From a virus (Duplodnaviria; Caudoviricetes), in the IMG/VR virus record IMGVR_UViG_3300036985_005342, positions 658 through 64,657 of that record: a DNA stretch of 64,000 nucleotides. The stretch is one strand, 5' to 3'. Positions 10,805 to 62,581 of the stretch are shown here, piece by piece. The number at the start of each line of letters is the position of its first letter. Position 1 is the stretch's first letter. The notes below the pieces were generated by a model that did not search any database, had not been told where the DNA came from, and saw only the letters and a list, made by a program, of their open reading frames with translations. Made by a program: the position numbers and the translations under genes.

Positions 10805-11009
10805 TGTCGAGTGAGATAAAAGTTTTTCCTGTTAGCGCGATAGCGACTTTCTCCGCATCCTCGATGGACAACGGACGACCTTCCAGCTTCAAACTACGAA
10901 GGTTATAGTAGTTCACGTCGGCCTCTCGGGCGAGCGCGGAAAGGTTTACAGTGGGGTTTGAAATTTGTTCTCGCAGAGTCGCGAGAAGTAGGGTAGCGTT
11001 GGCAGACAT
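10797..11009 (-). CDS. Small HTH (Cro/XRE-like) regulator
   Basis: 70 aa from MSANATLL; NLSALAREADVNYYNLRSLK...LSIEDAEKVAIAL. Confidence 0.7.
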   Translation of the reverse strand: MSANATLLLATLREQISNPTVNLSALAREADVNYYNLRSLKLEGRPLSIEDAEKVAIALTGKTFISLDNV

Positions 11010-11135
11010 GACCGCCGATGTAAGCTGGAGAAAGGATTTTGGCAAGGGGAAAATTATTTTCATTTTTTTGCAATTTCTCTGTTGACAGTCCAAATGTCCC
11101 ATGATTAACTCCGCTCGTTCCAAGAACACTACCAC

Positions 11136-11522
11136 ATGAAAACAACACCGAAGAAGAAAGTAATCAAGCGTGATGACCTCGTCATCGCCCGTGACCGTTT
11201 GTTTGAACTCAAAGAGCTTCAGAACAGCGCACGGGAAGAAGAGCTGAAGATCCGCGAGTATCTCGCAGACAACCTCCACACCGCCGAAGAAGGTTCTAAG
11301 ACCTTCGACATCGACGGCGTGAAAGTCACCATTACCCGCACGCTCTCCCGCACCATCGGCCAGACCGAGGCGGAGGAGTTCTGCAAGCAGCACGGCGATC
11401 TTTCGCTGGAGTGCCTGCGGTGGAAGCCGGAAGTCAAGGTCTCGGGCTACAAGGCTCATCGTGAGATCCTTGACGAGTTCATCGTAACGAAGGCCGGTCC
11501 TCCTTCCGTCGCTTTCAAATAA
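11136..11522 (+). CDS. Conserved-type phage protein heading the recombination/replication operon
   Basis: 128 aa; coiled coil, EGSKTFDIDG and LRWKPEV motifs of a type seen beside Sak4/SSB modules; TTGACA at 11082. Confidence 0.7.
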   Translation: MKTTPKKKVIKRDDLVIARDRLFELKELQNSAREEELKIREYLADNLHTAEEGSKTFDIDGVKVTITRTLSRTIGQTEAEEFCKQHGDLSLECLRWKPEVKVSGYKAHREILDEFIVTKAGPPSVAFK

Positions 11523-11532
11523 TCTCAACAAC

Positions 11533-11917
11533 GGGGCTGTAATGGTTTCGACACAACACGATAGAATACATAAGCAAGTAGAGGTTGATCGGATGGCCTC
11601 TTTAAAAATCCGATCAAAACAAATAAAAGCAGACTCCAACGAGTTCGCTCCTTCCCTTGAGGAAGCCAACGCAATCCTCTCCTTCCACGGTTTCGTGGAG
11701 CGTGAGCTTGCCGCAGCCTGAAAGGTGAGGACACAACGCTCTCCGATACGCCCGCGCTACGGAGAGAAACAAACCGGGCAACCAACGCAACTCAGCGGCG
11801 TAAAGACTGAGTGGTGGAAGGTCGCCTAACCAGCGTCCCCAATGTCCGAAAGGACTAAGCTTGTAGAAAATGTATTTAACAGTGTTGTGAACGCGGGTTC
11901 GATCCCCGCCAGCTCCA
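11533..11917 (+). ncRNA. ssrA: tmRNA (one-piece) with 30-aa tag ADSNEFAPSLEEANAILSFHGFVERELAAA
   Basis: 5' GGGGCTGTAATGGTTTCGAC; acceptor GGGGCTG/CAGCTCC-A with G3.U; T arm GCGGG-TTCGATC-CCCGC; helix CACAACAC/GTGTTGTG; PK1 GAGG/CCTC + GATCGGAT/ATCCGATC; resume GCA at 11629, TGA 11719-11721. Confidence 0.95.
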
Positions 11918-11923
11918 AAAGTC

Positions 11924-11953
11924 TTGACAAGTCCATACGGCTCCGCTAAAACT
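11924..11953 (+). promoter_or_regulatory. Promoter of HNH gene (near-leaderless)
   Basis: TTGACA-N17-TAAAACT, 7 nt before ATG 11961. Confidence 0.6.
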
Positions 11954-11960
11954 AGCGGAC

Positions 11961-12416
11961 ATGAAAATTTGTGAACAGTGCGAAAAAACATACGCCCCAT
12001 CATCTAACCACAGAAAATGCCCCTCATGCAGAAAACAGAACAGCAAGATCAAATGTCCGCAGTGCGGCTTTCTTATGCAGCGCAACTCAACGTCGTGTTC
12101 CGCCTGTGTGGATCGCTCGGGAACGCTGAACGGAAACTGGAAAGGTGGGAACATCTATCACAAAAAAGGGTATGCTATGCGGGCGGTAAAAAACCACCCT
12201 TCGGGAAAACGATATGTTTTCGAGCATACTCTGGTAATGGAAGCGCATCTCGGACGCTCTCTTTTCGCCGGAGAAAATGTGCATCACATCAACGGCAAGA
12301 AAGACGACAACCGAATAGAAAATTTAGAGCTGTGGCGCAGGCCGCAACCTTCGGGGATCAGAGTAGCGGATGCTGTTAAATGGGCTAAAGAAATTTTAAG
12401 ACTTTACAGCAAATAA
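11961..12416 (+). CDS. HNH homing endonuclease with N-terminal Cys zinc-binding repeats
   Basis: YVFEHTLVMEAHLGR...VHHINGKKDDNRIENLEL; four CxxC; AT-richer than flanks. Confidence 0.9.
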   Translation: MKICEQCEKTYAPSSNHRKCPSCRKQNSKIKCPQCGFLMQRNSTSCSACVDRSGTLNGNWKGGNIYHKKGYAMRAVKNHPSGKRYVFEHTLVMEAHLGRSLFAGENVHHINGKKDDNRIENLELWRRPQPSGIRVADAVKWAKEILRLYSK

Positions 12417-12417
12417 C

Positions 12418-12438
12418 CGATCCTCCCCAGCTCCACCA
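12418..12438 (+). repeat. Displaced copy of tmRNA 3' end carrying CCA
   Basis: CGATCCTCCCCAGCTCCA-CCA vs CGATCCCCGCCAGCTCCA at 11900-11917 (16/18). Confidence 0.8.
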
Positions 12439-12460
12439 ACTTTCCAACAGTAAACATAAA

Positions 12461-12545
12461 GGGATCTCAGGATGAGAAGCGCAAAATAAGTTGATGTCGC
12501 GCAAACATCGACGTTAGGGTTAGTTCGATTCTAACCCGTCCCACC
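12461..12545 (+). ncRNA. Non-canonical tRNA-like RNA
   Basis: GGGAT/GTCCC-ACC ends, GGGTTAG-TTCGATT-CTAACCC T arm, 8-bp stem with 7-nt loop CGCGCAA, TCTCA/TGAGA hairpin. Confidence 0.55.
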
Positions 12546-12576
12546 TCTCTCAGCAACAATTAAGAAAACAACAACC

Positions 12577-13392
12577 ATGTCCACACTATCACTTAAATCC
12601 ATCACGCACGGCATTGTCGAGCGTCCACCACGTATGCTCATCCTCGGGGTCGAGAAGATCGGGAAGTCCAGCTTCGCTGCTGGCGCACCTAACGCGATCT
12701 TTATCCCCATCAAGAAGGAAGAGGGCATCGACTCCCTGAATGTCGCCAAGTTCCCCGCCGTTGATTCCTTTGACGGCCTGATCGAGGCAATCAAGCTCCT
12801 CGGCGAGGGCGGGCACGAGTTCAAGACAGTCGTGATCGACTCTGCCACCGCGCTTGAATACATCATCTGGGAGGCTGTCTGCGAGGAGAACCAAGTCGCC
12901 AGCATCGAGCTTGCTGGAGGCGGCTACGGCAAGGGCTACGGCTTCGCTCTCGACAAGTGGAAAACCCTCCTCGACTACCTCGACTACCTCAGAGACGAGT
13001 GCGCCATGTCCGTGATCTTCATCGGCCACGTCAAGGTGAAAACCTTCAACGACCCTGAACGTCCGTCCTACGACCAATACCAGTTCGACATTAACGAAAA
13101 GGTTGCACATCTCATCATGCGCTGGGCTGACTTCATCGGCTTCGCCAACAAGAACATCGGTGTGGTTGAAGAAAAGTCAGGCTTCAACAAGAAGATCATC
13201 AAGGGCGACGATGTTGACCCCGACACCAACTATCTTTTCACCAAGAAGACACCAGCTCACCCCGGCGGCGGGCGCGGTATCTACGGCCAGCTCCCATCGG
13301 AGATTCCCCTTTACTGGGATAGTCTCCAAGAAGAACTTAATGACCTTCGACAACCGAAGGTCAGCAAGAAAACAAAACAACAAACCAAATAG
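12577..13392 (+). CDS. Sak4-like (AAA_24) ATPase / ssDNA-annealing protein
   Basis: Walker A GVEKIGKS, Walker B VVIDS, GGYGKGY, IFIGH, WADFIGF. Confidence 0.85.
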   Translation: MSTLSLKSITHGIVERPPRMLILGVEKIGKSSFAAGAPNAIFIPIKKEEGIDSLNVAKFPAVDSFDGLIEAIKLLGEGGHEFKTVVIDSATALEYIIWEAVCEENQVASIELAGGGYGKGYGFALDKWKTLLDYLDYLRDECAMSVIFIGHVKVKTFNDPERPSYDQYQFDINEKVAHLIMRWADFIGFANKNIGVVEEKSGFNKKIIKGDDVDPDTNYLFTKKTPAHPGGGRGIYGQLPSEIPLYWDSLQEELNDLRQPKVSKKTKQQTK

Positions 13393-13404
13393 AACAACAC
13401 CAAT

Positions 13405-13935
13405 ATGTCATTTAACATTGATCGTAAAAAAACGGGCGGACTCTCCGCAGGCGGATTGAAACTCAAAGTCGGCAAGCACGCCTACGAGATCACCGCAGCG
13501 GAGTATCTGCCGAATAAGAGCGACCCCACAGGGAAGGAAAAGCAAGTCGTCGTCAGCCTCACCGATAGTGACGGCACGGCCAAGCTCTACCTCGCCGTGA
13601 ACGCTGCCAACGACAATCAGCAGGAGATCGCGCAAAAGACTCTCGTGAGTCTTTGCGATGCGGCTGGCTACACCGGCCCGATCAAGCCGGAAGCCCTCCG
13701 CAAGCTTGTCGGCAGCGTCGTCATCGTCGAAGCCCGCGAGACGCAGGGCAAGGGCGCGAACGCCTCCAAAACCTACGTCAACGTCGCCAGCATCGAAGCT
13801 GGGGAAAGCGACGACAAGGAGGAGGAAGAGACCGAGGAAGAGGAAACTGAGGAAGAATCCGAAGAGGAGGAATCCGAAGAGGAGGAGCCTGCTCCAGCTC
13901 CGAAGTCCGGTGCCAAGAAGAAACCTTGGGAGTGA
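13405..13935 (+). CDS. ssDNA-binding protein (DUF669-like) with acidic tail
   Basis: Follows Sak4; AQKTLVSLCDAAG, poly-Glu tail ending KKKPWE. Confidence 0.7.
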   Translation: MSFNIDRKKTGGLSAGGLKLKVGKHAYEITAAEYLPNKSDPTGKEKQVVVSLTDSDGTAKLYLAVNAANDNQQEIAQKTLVSLCDAAGYTGPIKPEALRKLVGSVVIVEARETQGKGANASKTYVNVASIEAGESDDKEEEETEEEETEEESEEEESEEEEPAPAPKSGAKKKPWE

Positions 13936-14052
13936 TCCCGCAGCGGGCGCGGATGCCGATACAAGCCGCCACTCCCCAGCGCGGGGACGAGACTTAATGA
14001 CAACTCGCTCGTAAAAATTGTTCCTTTGTCCGATTGACTGCCGTAAGCAGTC

Positions 14053-14142
14053 ACCACATTCCAGCACCCCTTTAGGTGTAACCCAGCCTCTCTCTGAGGG
14101 GACTCTCTGTGAAATCCAGTGAAGGGGGTGTTGGAGTGTGGT
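14053..14142 (+). ncRNA. Structured RNA: 21-bp closing stem around D-like and T-like arms
   Basis: 14053-14073 pairs continuously with 14122-14142 (3 G.U); inside AGGT-GTAACCCA-GCCT and CTCTG-TGAAATC-CAGTG. Confidence 0.55.
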
Positions 14143-14177
14143 AGGGCGTTCCCTGAAAAGAACAGTGACCACAAACA

Positions 14178-14255
14178 GAAGCGGCGGCGGGGGACACTCC
14201 CGAGATCGCAGGAGGTTAGTCACCTCTAGTGTCGGCAGACTACCGACCCGCTTCA
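14178..14255 (+). ncRNA. Cloverleaf tRNA-like RNA with non-standard loops
   Basis: GAAGCGG/CCGCTTC-A, CGGGGG/CTCCCG, GGAGGT/ACCTCT, GTCGG-CAGACTA-CCGAC stacked on the closing stem. Confidence 0.55.
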
Positions 14256-14273
14256 CCCACTTTCCAAACCACA

Positions 14274-14681
14274 ATGTTCAAAGATCTCCGCAAACCCGCA
14301 AAGCTCGCATGGCAGAAGTCCGAAGACTATCTGCAACAGGAGTGCGCCAAGTTCGCCAAGAAGGCTCTCTACAACGCCAAGCTCCCGCAGGTATTTCACG
14401 CCATCCCCAACGGGGGCAGGCGCACCCAGCGGGAAGCTGCGAAGCTGAAGCTGACCGGCGTGTTGCCGGGGGTTGCTGACACGTTCCTGCCGCTGAAATC
14501 CGACGAGTTCTCCGGCCTCTACATCGAGCTGAAGAAAGCCGGTGGCAGCATCAAACCAGAACAAAAAACCTTCCTCAACGCTGTCGCCGCAGAAGGCTAC
14601 CTCGCCGTTGTGGTCAATGACCTCGAAACTTTTCAAGCGGTGTTTACCGCTTACCTCAACGATAGAAAACAACAAATATGA
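14274..14681 (+). CDS. VRR-NUC domain nuclease (resolvase-like)
   Basis: HAIPNGG, GVLPGVAD, LYIELKK, PEQKTF motifs; start MFKDLRK. Confidence 0.9.
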   Translation: MFKDLRKPAKLAWQKSEDYLQQECAKFAKKALYNAKLPQVFHAIPNGGRRTQREAAKLKLTGVLPGVADTFLPLKSDEFSGLYIELKKAGGSIKPEQKTFLNAVAAEGYLAVVVNDLETFQAVFTAYLNDRKQQI

Positions 14682-14866
14682 AAATGACCAAATACCACAG
14701 TGAACATGTAGGGGCATACCAATGCAAAGGAGCAACCGGAAGCTGCGAAAATCCCAAAAACCGCTATTCCCCCGAGCAGGAAGCATGGCTCCGTGAGCGC
14801 AAGCTCTACACCGGGCGCATGATTGTTGACATCGCGCATCTTCCACCTGAACTGAAATTTCTGTAA
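14678..14866 (+). CDS. Small hypothetical protein
   Basis: 62 aa, coupled to both neighbours. Confidence 0.55.
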   Translation: MKMTKYHSEHVGAYQCKGATGSCENPKNRYSPEQEAWLRERKLYTGRMIVDIAHLPPELKFL

Positions 14867-15720
14867 TGCTCGACATCACGAAAATCCTCGAAGCCCTCGA
14901 CCGCTTCATCATGTCCAACCCGACTGAAGACTACCACGTCTTCATTGAGAAGGACGACCGCCAGCGGCCTTACCTTGGCCTGAGCGGCCTCGGTGAGAAG
15001 TGTCTGCGAAAAGTGTGGTATCAGTGGCGGCACGCGGCAAAGCCCGTGTTTCCGCCCCGGATGCTGCGCTTGTTCCGCAGGGGCGACCGGGAGGAGTTCG
15101 TGATGTGCTGGATGCTCCGTGGCATCGGCTTTGAGATTTTCGAGGTCGATGAGCAGGGCAAGCAATTCTCGGTGCGGGACTTCGAGAACCACCTCAAAGG
15201 TAATCTCGATGGGGTGGCGAAGATCCCCGCCGAGTTCTGGCTGTCAGGCCAGAAGCCAACCCCGCTGCTCACGGAATACAAGACCGTCAACGACAAGGGC
15301 TTTCAAAAGTTCGTCAAAGAGGGCGTAGAGAAAACAAACCCGAAATACTACGGCCAGATGCAGGGCTATTGCGGCTACATGGGGCTGAAAGGTGCGCTTT
15401 TCATTGCGGTCAACAAGAACGATGATGATCTCTACATCGAGTTTGTTCCTGCCAAGAAGAACAAGTTCTCCGCGCTCGTGGACAAGGCTCAGGCAGTCAT
15501 CGAGTCGCAGGAGCCGCCGGAGCGGATGAGTGAGATCGCTTCGCATTGGGAGTGTAAATTTTGCGACTTCCACGGGATTTGCCACAAGAAAGAACCCGCC
15601 CAGAAGCTTTGCCGGACGTGCAAGTTTGCTTCGCCTGCTGCCGGTGGGAGCTGGGCTTGTGCGAAGGGCAAGGAGTATGGTGAGGTTTGCAAGGACTACA
15701 AAGACATCACCAAGCAATGA
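14866..15720 (+). CDS. Cas4/RecB-like PD-(D/E)XK exonuclease with Cys cluster
   Basis: CLRKVWY, GNLDG, TEYKT, YYGQMQGY, CKFCDFHGIC, CRTC. Confidence 0.88.
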   Translation: MLDITKILEALDRFIMSNPTEDYHVFIEKDDRQRPYLGLSGLGEKCLRKVWYQWRHAAKPVFPPRMLRLFRRGDREEFVMCWMLRGIGFEIFEVDEQGKQFSVRDFENHLKGNLDGVAKIPAEFWLSGQKPTPLLTEYKTVNDKGFQKFVKEGVEKTNPKYYGQMQGYCGYMGLKGALFIAVNKNDDDLYIEFVPAKKNKFSALVDKAQAVIESQEPPERMSEIASHWECKFCDFHGICHKKEPAQKLCRTCKFASPAAGGSWACAKGKEYGEVCKDYKDITKQ

Positions 15721-17357
15721 CCTTCAACGACCGCCAATACCAAGACGACATTTACAATGCCGTCTTTGAATACCTCTTCGAGAAAGAAGGCAATCAGGTT
15801 GTCGCCAGCCCCGGCGGCACCGGCAAGTCGCACGTGATGAACCGAATCATCAAAACGCTTGTGACGAAGTGGCCGGGAACCCGCGTGATCTCCCTCGTGC
15901 ATGACGCGAAGGTGATCGGCCAGAATCACGCCTCCATGCTGAAGTATTGGCCGAAGGCTCCGGCAGGGGTCTATTCCGCTGGCCTCAAGCGCAAGGAAGC
16001 CCACTTCCCTATCACCTTCGCAGGGATTCAATCTGTGGCCAAGAAGGCCGAGCAGATCGGCAAGCTCCACATCATCATCGTCGATGAGTGCGATCTCGTA
16101 TCCCCCAAGGAGGAGACCCTTTACCAACGATTCATCACTGACTGTCAGAAGCTCAACCCCGCCCTCCGGGTCATTGGTTTCACCGCAACACCCTACCGCC
16201 TCGGTATGGGGTGCCTCACGAACAGCGACCTGTGGGACGAGATCAGCATTGACCTTACCCGCACCGAAAAATTCAACTGGTTCGTCGAACATGGATACCT
16301 GACCCCGCTGGTCACGAAGCGGGCTTGCGCCGAGATCGACATCACGAACATCTCGATGCGTGGCGGCGAGTTCGATGAGAAGGAAATGCAGGAAGCTGCC
16401 GACACCGACGAGCTGAACGCGGCTGTGGTTTCGGAGTGCATCAAATACGGCCATGACCGCAACCACTGGCTCGTATTTGCCTCCGGTGTAAAGCACGGCC
16501 ACAAGATCGCCAAGATGTTCAACGCCCGAGGCGTGCCCGCCGTGATGCTCTCCGGCGCGGACTCGATGGAATACCGTGAGGAGATGGAGGAACGCTTCCG
16601 TGCCGGTGAGTTCCGTGTGCTGGTCAACGTCGGTCTCTACGGACGCGGCTGGGACTTCCCTGCACTGGATCTAGTTGCTTGGGCACGAGCCACCCAGTCG
16701 GTCGCTTTGTGGGTGCAGGGTAACGTGAGGCTTACCCGCATCCATCCTGATAAGCGCAACGGCCTCGTGCTGGATTTTGCAGGTAACACCCGCCGCCTCG
16801 GGCCGGTCAATGATCCAGTTGTCCCCGCACCTCGGCGCAAGGGTCAGGACGTGAAGGGGGAGGCACCTGTCAAGGAGTGCCCCCAGTGTTACAGTTATCT
16901 CCACACGCGCACGATGGTTTGCCCAGATTGCGGCTATGTCTTTCCCCCGCCGAAGAGCATTGAGAAGAAAGCTGCTAACGAGGAAATTATGAAGCAGGCG
17001 GCTCCGGTCGAGCCTGTCATCGAAGAGTTTGTCCCTCTCGGCGTTAGGTTCAAGCCTATGGTTTCCAAGAAGGGTCTTTCCTATCTATCGGTCGGCTACT
17101 CCATAGGCACCTACACCTTCAACGAGGCCATCTTTTTCCATAGCGGCTCCATGCGCCATCTCAAGCTCTGGTGGGAACATCGTAGCGGAAAATTCCCGCT
17201 GCCCACATCCGCGCAAGAAGCCGCCGACCGTTCCGGCGAACTCCGCACGCCTTCCTTAATCCGTGTGGACGTGACCCCGCAGAATAAATATCCCAAAGTT
17301 TTGGGTTGCGAGTTCGGGGAAACCCCGGATGATGCCGACGACATTGAACCTTTCTAA
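15717..17357 (+). CDS. Superfamily 2 helicase (RadD/YejH-like) with zinc finger
   Basis: RQYQ, PGGTGKS, DECD, FTATPYR, GWDFP, LDFAGN, CPQC...CPDCG. Confidence 0.9.
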   Translation: MTFNDRQYQDDIYNAVFEYLFEKEGNQVVASPGGTGKSHVMNRIIKTLVTKWPGTRVISLVHDAKVIGQNHASMLKYWPKAPAGVYSAGLKRKEAHFPITFAGIQSVAKKAEQIGKLHIIIVDECDLVSPKEETLYQRFITDCQKLNPALRVIGFTATPYRLGMGCLTNSDLWDEISIDLTRTEKFNWFVEHGYLTPLVTKRACAEIDITNISMRGGEFDEKEMQEAADTDELNAAVVSECIKYGHDRNHWLVFASGVKHGHKIAKMFNARGVPAVMLSGADSMEYREEMEERFRAGEFRVLVNVGLYGRGWDFPALDLVAWARATQSVALWVQGNVRLTRIHPDKRNGLVLDFAGNTRRLGPVNDPVVPAPRRKGQDVKGEAPVKECPQCYSYLHTRTMVCPDCGYVFPPPKSIEKKAANEEIMKQAAPVEPVIEEFVPLGVRFKPMVSKKGLSYLSVGYSIGTYTFNEAIFFHSGSMRHLKLWWEHRSGKFPLPTSAQEAADRSGELRTPSLIRVDVTPQNKYPKVLGCEFGETPDDADDIEPF

Positions 17358-17557: not shown

Positions 17558-17778
17558 AGATGCGGATAACTTTCATCGAAGATGAGTCGGAACAGTTCTT
17601 CAACCTGACAGAAAAGGAAATTAAAGCTTTTCACACGCTGGCCAACTGTCCCGTTTTCAAGATGCTCACGGGGTCGGACGCGCCGGTTTTCAGCGTCCCT
17701 ATCTGTCACAGATGCCACATCCGCGATTCCAACACTGACACCGGCCTATGCTTTACCTGTGAATATACCGAACCATAA
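17554..17778 (+). CDS. Small zinc-finger protein
   Basis: CHRC...CFTC at C-terminus; coupled. Confidence 0.6.
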   Translation: MKMRITFIEDESEQFFNLTEKEIKAFHTLANCPVFKMLTGSDAPVFSVPICHRCHIRDSNTDTGLCFTCEYTEP

Positions 17779-18710
17779 TGAAACACGCCCTCTCCCTCTG
17801 CTCCCTCGCGCTCAACCCACTCGCTCCGTCTCCCACGGCCAGCATGGTCAAGATCGAGGGAGGTCACATGACCTCATTCGGCGGCACCGCCTGTGTCCGC
17901 GTCCCTGTGGGCGTGGAAGTTGGCGCGTGCTTTAGCCCTTCACTGTTTGCCACGTTCTTCAGGAAAGAACGCGAGGCGGTTTCCTACACTCTCAGCAAGG
18001 GCAAGCTGGTGCTGAAAGAGGGCAAGGAGAAACTCTCCATCCCTTTCCTCCCGACGGACGAGATGCCTACGCTCGATGTGCTGTCACCTCCCATAGCATG
18101 TGAGCTGAACCTCGAACACCTGAAGCTTTGCGCCGATGTGGTCGATCCGACTCACCACAAACCTGAGTGTCAAGGTGTCAACTTCCGCTTCGGGGTCATG
18201 GAGGCTTCCGACGGGCGCGTGCTAGTGTCAGCCACCTCCGGCCTCGACGACGATATGTGGTTCAATCTACCGCTTGTGTCGGCCAAGATCCTGCTCAAGT
18301 TAAAGTCAAAAGTCGTGTCCGTTGCGCTGGAGAAAGCCGCCGTGAAGTTCAACTGTGCGGACGGCACTTCGGTCTGCTCCGTGTTGATTTATGAACAGCT
18401 CACTGACACCTCGCCGTTCTACAAGCACGAATGGATCAAGGCTGGAATCAAACAGTCGTTTGCAGCGGATGTTGCGAAGATTGAATGTGAGAGTTTTGCA
18501 TTTACCGAAGGCGGGGTCAAATATGTTCAAGAGAAGTCGGAAGGCTTTATCGAAGATGTTTGCGACAAGAGCTGCAAGATGAGGATCTCAAAAACCTGTT
18601 TGGGTGTTTTACTCAAGGTCGGTAACGACATTAGGGTATCAGCGACAGGATCTTTAGCGATGTCTGTCAGTGAAGATCTTCGTGCGGTCAGTGTCCTTTA
18701 CAGCTCTTAA
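17778..18710 (+). CDS. Sliding-clamp (DNA pol III beta-like) protein
   Basis: 310 aa; LSIPFLPTDEMP and CQGVNF...MEASDGRVL resemble beta-clamp motifs; directly upstream of PolA. Confidence 0.6.
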   Translation: MKHALSLCSLALNPLAPSPTASMVKIEGGHMTSFGGTACVRVPVGVEVGACFSPSLFATFFRKEREAVSYTLSKGKLVLKEGKEKLSIPFLPTDEMPTLDVLSPPIACELNLEHLKLCADVVDPTHHKPECQGVNFRFGVMEASDGRVLVSATSGLDDDMWFNLPLVSAKILLKLKSKVVSVALEKAAVKFNCADGTSVCSVLIYEQLTDTSPFYKHEWIKAGIKQSFAADVAKIECESFAFTEGGVKYVQEKSEGFIEDVCDKSCKMRISKTCLGVLLKVGNDIRVSATGSLAMSVSEDLRAVSVLYSS

Positions 18711-47068: not shown

Positions 47069-47258
47069 AATTTTTGTTGGTTGAAGTTTCGATTTCTCGT
47101 TTCCGCAACTAACGAGCCACCGTCAGTCTCCTATGGACACCGTTGGAGGGACGCTAAATCCTCCGGTAAGCTGAACGTGATGCTCAAAGGCTGTGGCTTG
47201 GAAAACCACTAGGCTGAGAGCAATTCAGCACGTCTCCGAGGAACTGTCAACATAAAAA

Positions 47259-53882: not shown

Positions 53883-54343
53883 GCCTTGGCCAGCTCGGCG
53901 AGCTGCTTCAGTTTGGCGACGGGGACCCCGAGATGCTCGGCGGTATCAGGCAGCTTGTTGAGCTGGTAGAGGTCGATGGTCGTGATCTCACCGCGAAGGA
54001 GGATGTTGACCAGCTCCTTTGGCTCCTTGACCACAAGGGTAGTCTTGCCGGGTTTCTCCTTGGAGATTTCCAGCTCGGTGACGAGGCCGGTGATTGCGTC
54101 CTTGAGGAAGAAGCGTTGTTCGATCACGGGGTCGGGTTCCGGCTCAGGAGCCTTGGCGGCAGCGGGCTTTTTCTTCTTCGGTCCGAAGTCATCCGGGTAG
54201 GTCGTCTTCAGTGCCGCGATGTAACCTGTCATTACGCTCTCGTCCTCGGTGGCGAGGAAAGCGAGAATGTCGTCAGCTTCAGTGGAGCCGCCATTGAGGA
54301 AGTAATCCCGGAGGTCGGCTAGTTTATTTTTGTTGATGTCCAT
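53879..54343 (-). CDS. Hypothetical protein upstream of TerL
   Basis: 154 aa, coupled to terL; HTH-like C-terminus. Confidence 0.65.
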   Translation of the reverse strand: MDINKNKLADLRDYFLNGGSTEADDILAFLATEDESVMTGYIAALKTTYPDDFGPKKKKPAAAKAPEPEPDPVIEQRFFLKDAITGLVTELEISKEKPGKTTLVVKEPKELVNILLRGEITTIDLYQLNKLPDTAEHLGVPVAKLKQLAELAKA

Positions 54344-62367: not shown

Positions 62368-62459
62368 CCGGTGCCCGTGCCGGTGCCGGGGAACCTTCAA
62401 CCCACCCCATACCCCCCGCCCCGGTGCCGGTGCCCGCCGGTGCCGGTGCCCGGTGCCCG
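62368..62459 (+). repeat. Cluster of (CCG)GTGCC repeats
   Basis: Eight GTGCC in ~90 bp of non-coding DNA. Confidence 0.85.
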
Positions 62460-62495
62460 CTTCAATCCAAAGATTGAAACGCTTGTTTCAATCAA

Positions 62496-62581
62496 ATGAC
62501 ATACGACAAAATTGTCGCATGTTCTATTTACTAGAAACGTAGTAAATGGACGCATGAAATACGACAAAATTGTCGCATGTT
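62496..62581. promoter_or_regulatory. Two 28-bp near-palindromic direct repeats flanking a YTACY-N8-AGTAR site
   Basis: ATGA(C/A)ATACGACAAAATTGTCGCATGTT at 62496 and 62554; TTACTAGAAACGTAGTAA at 62528-62545. Confidence 0.8.

Follow-up and report, generated by a model that had tools for sequence, protein, structure and literature searches.

The locus described here raises the question of what a phage carries, and to what effect, between two neighboring genes of its replication block. The stretch of DNA that was searched (64 kb; hereafter the window) belongs to the Caudoviricetes record IMGVR_UViG_3300036985_005342 in IMG/VR, which is 64.6 kb long and estimated to be 81% complete. At 13936-14273, a gap of 338 bases separates the TGA stop codon of an upstream open reading frame (ORF; 13405-13935), which encodes an SSB-like protein (p176), from the ATG start codon (14274) of an ORF for a VRR-NUC-like nuclease. 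The genes on both sides of the gap are all on the + strand. An initial annotation had described the gap as packed with RNA structure, including two tRNA-shaped domains, and had interpreted these domains, together with the transfer-messenger RNA (tmRNA) and an element near 12461, as a co-transcribed set of tRNA mimics, such as decoys against tRNA-targeting defence nucleases or RNase P/Z processing signals. The observation is partly confirmed by the present analysis and the interpretation is partly supported. The gap holds a genuine structured spacer, which is an orphan but of a familiar type. It cannot be recognized as a tRNA mimic, the results do not demonstrate a set of tRNA decoys, and a role as a processing signal is possible. 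The reading that we tentatively prefer, with confidence a little below even, is that of a structured spacer, specific to this lineage, that acts in cis within a + strand polycistronic mRNA, in RNA processing or stability. This preference is based on the presence of a two-turn helix between cistrons, the stronger structure on the + strand, the lack of a promoter, terminator, or ORF, and the occurrence of a long hairpin at the same place in relatives.

Structure of the non-coding gap

The main feature of the gap is a stem domain of 21 bp (Table 1). As the initial annotation had stated, the only non-Watson-Crick pairs in this stem on the + strand are G.U. The stem consists of 18 Watson-Crick and three G.U pairs with zero other mismatches, and all three imperfect pairs would become A.C mismatches on the - strand. 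When compared with shuffled sequences, the + strand of the domain folds at -47.4 kcal/mol (z -4.39; none of 200 shuffles equally stable) and the - strand at -39.7 kcal/mol (z -2.73). The pair probability of the stem is 0.98 in three sequence contexts. It is the longest among the 29 ungapped stems of at least 13 bp on the + strand of the whole window, and the chance expectation of such a stem is about 8e-4 per window by a hand estimate. The stem closes a multibranch loop of 48 nt with hairpins of 3-6 bp. D-like and T-like arms had been proposed in this interior, and the domain as a whole had been taken for a tRNA shape; the interior is a small multibranch loop in which no tested feature is tRNA-like, and the domain is a 21-bp helix. 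Provided that transcription of the gap is assumed, the stem also supplies the double-stranded helix of about 20 bp or more that is expected of an RNase III site.

The proposed 7-bp hairpin TGACTGC-CGTAA-GCAGTCA was borne out as well (-9.8 kcal/mol; z -4.17; 0/200 shuffles equally stable). For the gap as a whole, which is real, non-coding, and located in a same-strand replication/recombination block, the structure is stronger on the transcribed strand (z -3.61; 0/100 shuffles equally stable) than on the - strand (z -1.62; 7/100). In a rough ORF map of the window, two of the 13 other uncovered stretches of at least 90 nt have z < -3 on either strand, and the gap is among the most structured spacers of this phage. 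Three further regions of the window are structured. The spacer at 62411-62576 is the most structured of the window (z -6.6 on the + strand and -5.0 on the - strand) and contains GTGCCGG repeats, and the spacer at 47069-47258, which lies among - strand genes, is structured on the - strand (z -3.9). The second-longest stem, at 53889-53967, has 20 pairs (including five G.U on the + strand) that enclose 39 nt.

The TCCCC/GGGGA hairpin in the 5' part of the gap had also been listed as a structure, and the region that contains it (13936-13995) folds no better than chance when taken alone (z -0.49; 59/200 shuffles equally stable). Segments of this region can pair with 14180-14267 (inverted repeats I2, I3, and I7). 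The resulting long-range pairing gains -16 kcal/mol, compared with -7.3 +/- 3.5 kcal/mol for shuffled partners, and the gain is reached by 4/200 shuffles, which is modestly better than chance. An outer helix between 13926-13934 (the last p176 codons) and 14258-14267, which would have suggested translational coupling, was dropped because its probability of 0.8 falls to 0.01-0.04 with more flanking sequence. A reading of the 90-nt stem element as a miniature inverted-repeat transposable element with a target-site duplication was likewise rejected, as the repeat CAGTCACCACA / CAGTGACCACA does not flank the element; no second copy of this element was found anywhere. The repeats in the gap are short and in two copies only, with no iterons. 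The GC content of the gap (0.53-0.57) is similar to that of its surroundings and not AT-rich, and the GC skew at the gap is flat, without a sharp turn.

The gap is treated as non-coding. None of the three ORFs that overlap it (13408-14274 on the - strand; 14138-14479 and 13658-14014 on the + strand) has a match in PHROGs, and one of these ORFs, with 288 aa, runs antisense to the upstream gene, which is conserved. All other ORFs in the gap are small (23-41 aa) and none is credible. For transcription signals, a scan of 11000-16000 for sigma-70-like promoters found none, and a scan of the gap for intrinsic terminators found no + strand site with a hairpin followed by a U-tract. The single terminator-like site that touches the gap is on the - strand (14185-14168), and the scanned region holds six such sites versus 6.9 expected. 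Within the nuclease gene, a hairpin followed by a U-tract on the - strand (14556-14602) gives a weak match to ctRNA_p42d (24.1 bits, with a gathering score of 50; E 0.05).

Contents of the same slot in related loci

Sixty-odd loci with AAA_24 proteins 42-55% identical to that of the window share the gene order AAA_24 ... Cas4-like exonuclease - helicase. In 25 of the 35 rows compared, this interval contains one or more stretches of at least 90 nt without coverage by + strand ORFs of at least 90 aa. The content of the slot varies among these relatives and may be nothing, a hairpin, tRNAs, or small ORFs. Eighteen distinct long hairpins (44-122 nt) that begin with GGAYGYGRGC were found, mostly one per locus with three in L050; the carriers are L005, L008, L012-L015, L019, L020, L025, L027, L034, L049, L050, L068, and others. 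Among the nine loci in which the hairpin can be placed, it starts 17-38 nt past the stop codon of the SSB-like ORF, or 223 nt in L020. Ahead of the hairpins stands GCTCGCAT, which repeats the sequence of their 3' arm and gives an arrangement of a conserved 10-mer that is both inverted and direct (GCTCGCAT, then GGATGCGAGC, the loop, and then GCTCGCATCC) and occurs about once per locus. The distal pairs of the hairpins (stem positions 10-12) covary. Over the first 12 pairs, 28 G.T and 19 A.C were counted, with no clear asymmetry. In several of these hairpins, a stem of 14-23 bp encloses 49-68 nt, compared with 21 bp around 48 nt in the window, and some share the inner motif GATAGGCWG...CWGCYGAAA. 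Rfam reported nothing for this hairpin at the gathering score in the 20 loci scanned. The window itself has zero forward matches to the GGAYGYGRGC motif, the 10-mer at the base of these hairpins, and a covariance model of the window stem found nothing in the loci with this hairpin.

Genes of the tRNA clan are present in the same interval in L012, L028, and L062. In addition, the gap after the SSB-like gene in L007 (L007:3664-3736) holds a sequence that scores 44.7 bits with the tRNA model, in which seven anticodon-loop positions are absent and the T arm and acceptor are canonical. This tRNA-like sequence was missed by both ARAGORN and the Rfam run at gathering scores (20 loci), and its score was obtained with the same kind of search in which the elements of the window gave nothing. 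Four tRNA genes in the replication modules of relatives have odd anticodon loops or sizes. ARAGORN assigned an anticodon of four letters to L062:2783-2857 and of two letters to L041:1336-1406 and called L028:2203-2285 an 83-nt tRNA-Ala, and L012:6020-6089 is an Rfam tRNA match with 31.7 bits.

Among GenBank phages, neither blastn of 13000-15500 nor tblastn of p176 gave a match, and the AAA_24 protein has at most 35% identity to those of named phages. Locus searches of IMG/VR found none with p176 alone, three distant loci in other gene contexts with the VRR-NUC-like protein, and two identical loci at 41% identity with a p176 alignment; exact-pattern scans of IMG/VR with two p176 stretches gave 0 matches each, and a related-locus search of genome contigs found none. 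A metagenome scan recovered L036 (98%) and L035 (72%), both of which are contigs that end before the gap. As proteins, closer relatives of p176 (P0002-P0009) have 62-86% identity. The structured-RNA candidates from IMG/VR in the accessible part of one study include tRNA-like RNAs and structures upstream of gp32 genes, none of which could be tied to this gap (PMC10690425).

The window was also compared with four public sequencing runs that contain near-identical DNA (X3, X4, X5, and X9). The listing of runs with such DNA includes no RNA data set, and the phage occurs at lake and sediment sites. The contigs of X4 and X9 are short, and 13963-14313 is outside their coverage. The X3 contig is 99% identical and has kept the gap with one change at 13940. 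The gap thus carries one of the nine differences found over 1301 bases and is therefore no more diverged than its coding flanks. The X5 contig (28 kb, from a metagenome) has 12 differences over 13400-13939 (about 98% identity) and 53 differences over 14268-14700 (88% identity), with 231 unrelated letters in place of 13940-14267. The breakpoints are 4 nt after the stop codon and 6 nt before the start codon. This replacement marks the gap as a cassette that is open to exchange and lies at a mosaic junction.

Several of these findings weigh against the preferred reading of the gap as a cis-acting spacer. The element is dispensable or exchangeable, as seen from its replacement in X5, and in L076 (helicase with 54% identity) just 24 nt are present between the two genes. 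No homolog of the gap was found at E<=1 by blastn and nhmmer against 33 loci or by blastn against 74 loci. Single-sequence covariance models R1 and R2, when run over 350 kb, matched the window itself alone (R2 gave two further chance-level matches with E above 5), and exact-pattern scans of IMG/VR with one stem arm and with the 3' part of the cloverleaf gave 0 matches each. The window stem shares no sequence with the hairpin of the relatives and starts 117 nt after the stop codon, not within about 40 nt. Moreover, the G.U asymmetry of the stem depends on just three pairs, which amounts to one chance in 8, and the near-balanced counts of 28 G.T and 19 A.C mean that the hairpins of the relatives are no proof of a function at the RNA level.

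The cloverleaf candidate and the surrounding genes

The second tRNA-shaped domain of the initial annotation, a cloverleaf at 14178-14255, has the helix lengths described there and is followed by an ACC tail. It is not the favored fold in context, lacks the T- and D-loop signatures, and is reported by neither Rfam nor ARAGORN. The tRNA geometry (a 7-bp acceptor, T and anticodon arms of 5 bp with 7-nt loops, and an NCC tail) is present at 14178-14254, with a 3-nt spacer between the middle arm and the T-like arm. The D-like arm is irregular and long, with 26 nt between stems and a 23-nt hairpin with the loop ACAC. A strict geometry descriptor found this candidate as the sole match on both strands of the window, and dinucleotide shuffles gave 0.43 matches per window and at least one match with an NCC tail in 12/300; because the descriptor was written after the candidate had been seen, these figures flatter the candidate. 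The same descriptor matched only a true tRNA over 364 kb of the relatives' loci. When folded alone, the cloverleaf has z -2.17 (5/200 shuffles equally stable). Within the whole-gap ensemble, the closing and T-like stems of the cloverleaf reach probabilities of 0.00-0.07, because the long-range pairing with 13926-13971 is better by 8 kcal/mol.

The elbow of a tRNA is built by a T-loop of the UUCRANY-type consensus and the GG of the D-loop. As read from the sequence, the T-loop signature (UUCRANY type) is absent from the loop CAGACUA and GG is absent from the D-like arm, and the loop of the middle arm (UUAGUCA) has a U at the U33 position. An Rfam search of 13900-14300 (401 bases, E up to 10) found no match of the tRNA clan (RF00005; gathering score 29 bits), and YrlA (RF02553) is not among the three matches listed for this interval. 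Other Rfam searches likewise gave no tRNA-clan match in the gap. In searches of 401 and 221 bases, the stem domain, the cloverleaf, and the 12461 element all lack a tRNA-clan match at E up to 10, which goes against the tRNA mimicry that had been proposed. ARAGORN reported the tmRNA alone in the whole window, and the tmRNA model (RF00023) has a single match (11533-11920) and none in the gap. Comparisons between the cloverleaf and the tRNA-like sequences of the relatives revealed no similarity (local alignment scores of 10-16).

About 1.5 kb upstream of the gap, an insertion of about 625 nt (11918-12544) at the 3' end of the tmRNA contains the HNH gene and the 12461 element. The tmRNA 3' end, beginning with the T-loop, is present there in a second copy (12418-12435; 16/18 bases), and a promoter-like TTGACA-17-TAAAAC also lies in the insertion. 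In L036, with an AAA_24 protein 98% identical to that of the window, these approximately 625 nt are missing and the tmRNA 3' end runs straight into the AAA_24 leader. The encoded CCA of the window tmRNA is replaced by AAA. The insertion has the appearance of a cassette in which a homing endonuclease targets tRNA-like 3' ends. An alternative interpretation of the tmRNA 3'-end copy as an attP site was rejected, as no tyrosine integrase was found in the record, of which an estimated 81% is present. For the 12461 element, the T arm appears canonical by eye and its spacer folds at z -0.69; an Rfam search of 221 bases (E up to 10) gave no tRNA-clan match. Since L036 lacks the insertion, the proposed set of tRNA mimics is not a conserved set, and the part of this set that lies in the gap is replaced in X5. 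In both L035 (72%; L035:1470-1822) and L036 (98% AAA_24 identity; L036:3574-3961), the tmRNA is located directly upstream of AAA_24, and the tag peptide of the L035 tmRNA (AAHCSNGNNVIAFSRRSARSSDLALVA) is entirely unlike that of the window.

The trailer of the second copy of the tmRNA 3' end (12427-12447) resembles the 3' acceptor strand and trailer of the cloverleaf. The two sequences have 18/21 bases in common and a local alignment score of 27, which was reached by 1/300 shuffles, and the motif CACCMACTTTCCAA occurs exactly at just these two sites in the window. This match hints that the cloverleaf may descend from a tRNA-like sequence moved by cassettes.

Regarding the genes that flank the gap, the matches of p176 in PHROGs are both weak (phrog_2300, 3.4e-5; phrog_6015, annotated as SSB, 0.0064), and searches of Pfam, NCBIfam, and PDB for this family gave no match of note. 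Its homologs (n=20, 46-99% identity) share a conserved domain at the N-terminus, an acidic tail that varies in length, and a C-terminal tip K(K/R)PW(E/G), in which the P and W of K(K/R)PW are invariant in all; this layout resembles that of SSB proteins. The VRR-NUC-like nuclease matches phrog_824 (1.4e-35) and phrog_5702 (Holliday junction resolvase, 1.8e-7), and scores 20.3 bits with Pfam VRR_NUC, which is under the cut-off of 23.8.

Table 1. Positions of the structured elements and genes discussed in the text (window coordinates unless a locus is named).
Feature	Position	Strand	Basis or remark
21-bp stem domain	14053-14142 (arms 14053-14073 / 14122-14142)	+	Folding versus shuffles, pair probability
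7-bp hairpin TGACTGC-CGTAA-GCAGTCA	14035-14053	+	Folding versus shuffles
5' part of gap with TCCCC-AGCGC-GGGGA hairpin (13973-13987)	13936-13995	+	
Cloverleaf candidate	14178-14254 (14178-14258 with tail ACCC)	+	Geometry scan
Acceptor-like stem, 7 bp	14178-14184 / 14248-14254	+	
Middle arm, 5 bp, 7-nt loop UUAGUCA	14211-14227	+	
T-like arm, 5 bp, loop CAGACUA	14231-14247	+	Stacked directly on closing stem
3' acceptor strand and trailer CCCGCTTCACCCACTTTCCAA	14247-14267	+	Matches 12427-12447
GGAYGYGRGC hairpin of relatives, examples	L020:4708-4794; L012:5620-5730		
tmRNA	11533-11920; 11533-11917	+	Rfam, 127.8 bits; ARAGORN
HNH endonuclease gene	11961-12416	+	
AAA_24 (Sak4-like) ATPase	12577-13392	+	
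p176, 176-aa SSB-like protein	13405-13935	+	Weak PHROG matches
VRR-NUC-like nuclease	14274-14681	+	PHROG, sub-threshold Pfam
Cas4-domain exonuclease	14866-15720	+	
Helicase	15687-17357	+	
Processivity-factor-like protein	17778-18710	+	

Possible roles of the spacer and comparison with known systems

A helix of about two turns has the known substrate size of bacterial RNase III, and phages T7 and lambda use RNase III sites between cistrons. SSB-type proteins are needed stoichiometrically. We infer that the block is transcribed as one RNA, and with it any cleavage and any effect on expression. The order in this transcript would be tmRNA - (HNH) - AAA_24/Sak4-like - SSB-like - gap - VRR-NUC-like - Cas4-like exonuclease - helicase. 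Under the preferred reading, the 21-bp helix would be cut by an endonuclease in the manner of an RNase III site, would block 3' exonucleases, or both; such a cut-or-protect role appears likely because of the RNase III sites of T7 and lambda and the stabilizing intercistronic hairpins of other systems. In this way, the helix may uncouple the amount or lifetime of the SSB-like message from those of the downstream nuclease and helicase messages. More speculatively, the tRNA-shaped element might be cut by RNase P on its 5' side, 96 nt before the nuclease start codon, or alternatively might act as a protective 5' structure.

The exchange of the gap between close relatives may also be explained by a lack of function. 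The gap could be mosaic-junction filler from cassette exchange, possibly driven by a homing endonuclease, and a decayed tRNA-like gene and an inverted duplication might be among its contents. This would agree with the swap of the whole gap for 231 letters and the change in identity from about 98% to 88% across it, the wide differences in slot content among relatives, the HNH cassette of about 625 nt inserted 1.5 kb upstream, in which tRNA-like 3' ends have the same trailer motif, and the failure to find a homolog of the gap in the searches made. We nevertheless regard functionless filler as rather unlikely, given that a 21-bp helix with G.U-only imperfections and strand-specific stability is unexpected of decaying sequence and that a long hairpin recurs at the same position in relatives; the gap in X3, which has one of nine differences and is no more diverged than the coding flanks, is a weak argument in the same direction. 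The inverted repeat of 21 bp adjoins SSB-like, nuclease, and helicase genes, and may instead be a DNA-level element, such as an origin, a single-strand initiation hairpin, or a palindromic site for protein binding or recombination. The roughly once-per-locus 10-mer of the relatives and their near-balanced G.T (28) and A.C (19) pairs would suit a DNA site. However, the gap has only short two-copy repeats and no iterons, its GC content of 0.53-0.57 is not AT-rich, the skew has no sharp turn, the 10-mer of the relatives is absent from the window in the forward orientation, and the presence of G.U on the + strand only favors a single-stranded + molecule. These features make a DNA-level role quite unlikely.

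For a role in trans, at least one free small RNA would have to be encoded in the gap and cut from the operon transcript, for example, a non-canonical tRNA-like RNA at 14178-14258 that is a decoy or sponge for tRNA-targeting defence nucleases or for a different factor that binds tRNA. The exact tRNA helix geometry with an ACC tail is in favor of this explanation, as it is the sole match in the window (12/300 shuffles) and the strict scan over 364 kb of the relatives' loci matched a true tRNA only. The U at the U33 position of the middle-arm loop, the 18/21 bases common to 14247-14267 and the trailer of the tmRNA 3'-end copy, the tRNA or degenerate tRNA genes in the same slot of L007, L012, L028, and L062, and the tmRNA at the head of the same gene block point in the same direction. 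Phage tRNAs that defeat tRNA-cleaving defences are documented (PMC11464382, PMC11555353), which also favors a small RNA. On the other hand, the descriptor postdates the candidate, the 401-base search at E up to 10 and ARAGORN were both negative, and neither CAGACUA nor the D-like arm has the expected loop signature (T-loop type and GG, respectively). The cloverleaf, when folded alone, reaches no better than z -2.17 (stem probability 0.00-0.07 in the whole gap), its alignment scores of 10-16 with the relatives' tRNA-likes indicate no similarity, it is replaced in the X5 contig, and it has no promoter or terminator of its own. A trans-acting small RNA is therefore considered unlikely. A broader version of this explanation is that tRNA-shaped RNAs of non-canonical form punctuate the operon in this phage lineage (the tmRNA, the 12461 element, the cloverleaf, and the tRNA-likes of the relatives, with a missing or odd anticodon). 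Host enzymes of tRNA processing would release them from the mRNA, and some would act in trans, e.g., by sequestering defence nucleases that target tRNA. The domain of the 21-bp helix would then be a second excised RNA, and the cloverleaf a member that keeps only the helix geometry and the ACC tail. We consider this punctuated operon very improbable.

If the preferred reading of a cis-acting spacer is correct, the gap would be another case in which a phage tunes the output of neighboring replication genes through the RNA structure of a spacer. The slot is conserved and its content is freely exchanged. In some phages it holds the long hairpin of one family and in others a different one; a tRNA, either true or degenerate, may take its place, or the slot may be empty. 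As a natural experiment, the slot can show which structures are able to stand in for one another. This wider pattern of degenerate tRNA-likes and a conserved hairpin in replication modules may be of more interest than the orphan element itself.

Compared with tRNA (RF00005), phage tRNA-likes, and the tRNA-like domain of tmRNA, the cloverleaf is alike in helix lengths, in the ACC tail, and in a slot shared with tRNA-clan genes of the relatives. It differs in having no covariance-model match, no T- or D-loop signature, an oversized D-like arm of 26 nt, and a fold that is unfavored in context. YrlA (RF02553) is a Y-RNA-like RNA of bacteria and phages in which a long stem is combined with a tRNA-like module. 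In the gap, too, a tRNA-shaped module lies near a long helix of the same strand, although these are two separate neighboring domains and not one RNA closed by the long stem. The GGAYGYGRGC hairpin of the relatives differs from the window stem in sequence, with zero forward motif matches in the window, and is similar in its slot, in the long stem around tens of nucleotides, and in its end a short distance upstream of the following gene. The mRNA-stabilizing hairpins between cistrons, such as the REP elements of malE-malF and those of the puf operon, are comparable in that a hairpin comes after a gene with a product needed in larger amounts than those encoded downstream; the hairpins of the relatives, moreover, mostly begin 17-38 nt past the stop codon. 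In comparison, the window stem is 117 nt past the stop codon, and the assignment of p176 as an SSB protein is weak. The RNase III hairpins of T7 early mRNA and lambda are unrelated to the gap in sequence and family, with no Rfam match, and the T7 sites usually have an internal loop, whereas the window helix is uninterrupted and closes a multibranch loop of 48 nt. In its organization, the gap nonetheless matches these hairpins, as in both cases a helix of about two turns lies between same-strand cistrons, with no U-tract and no ORF.

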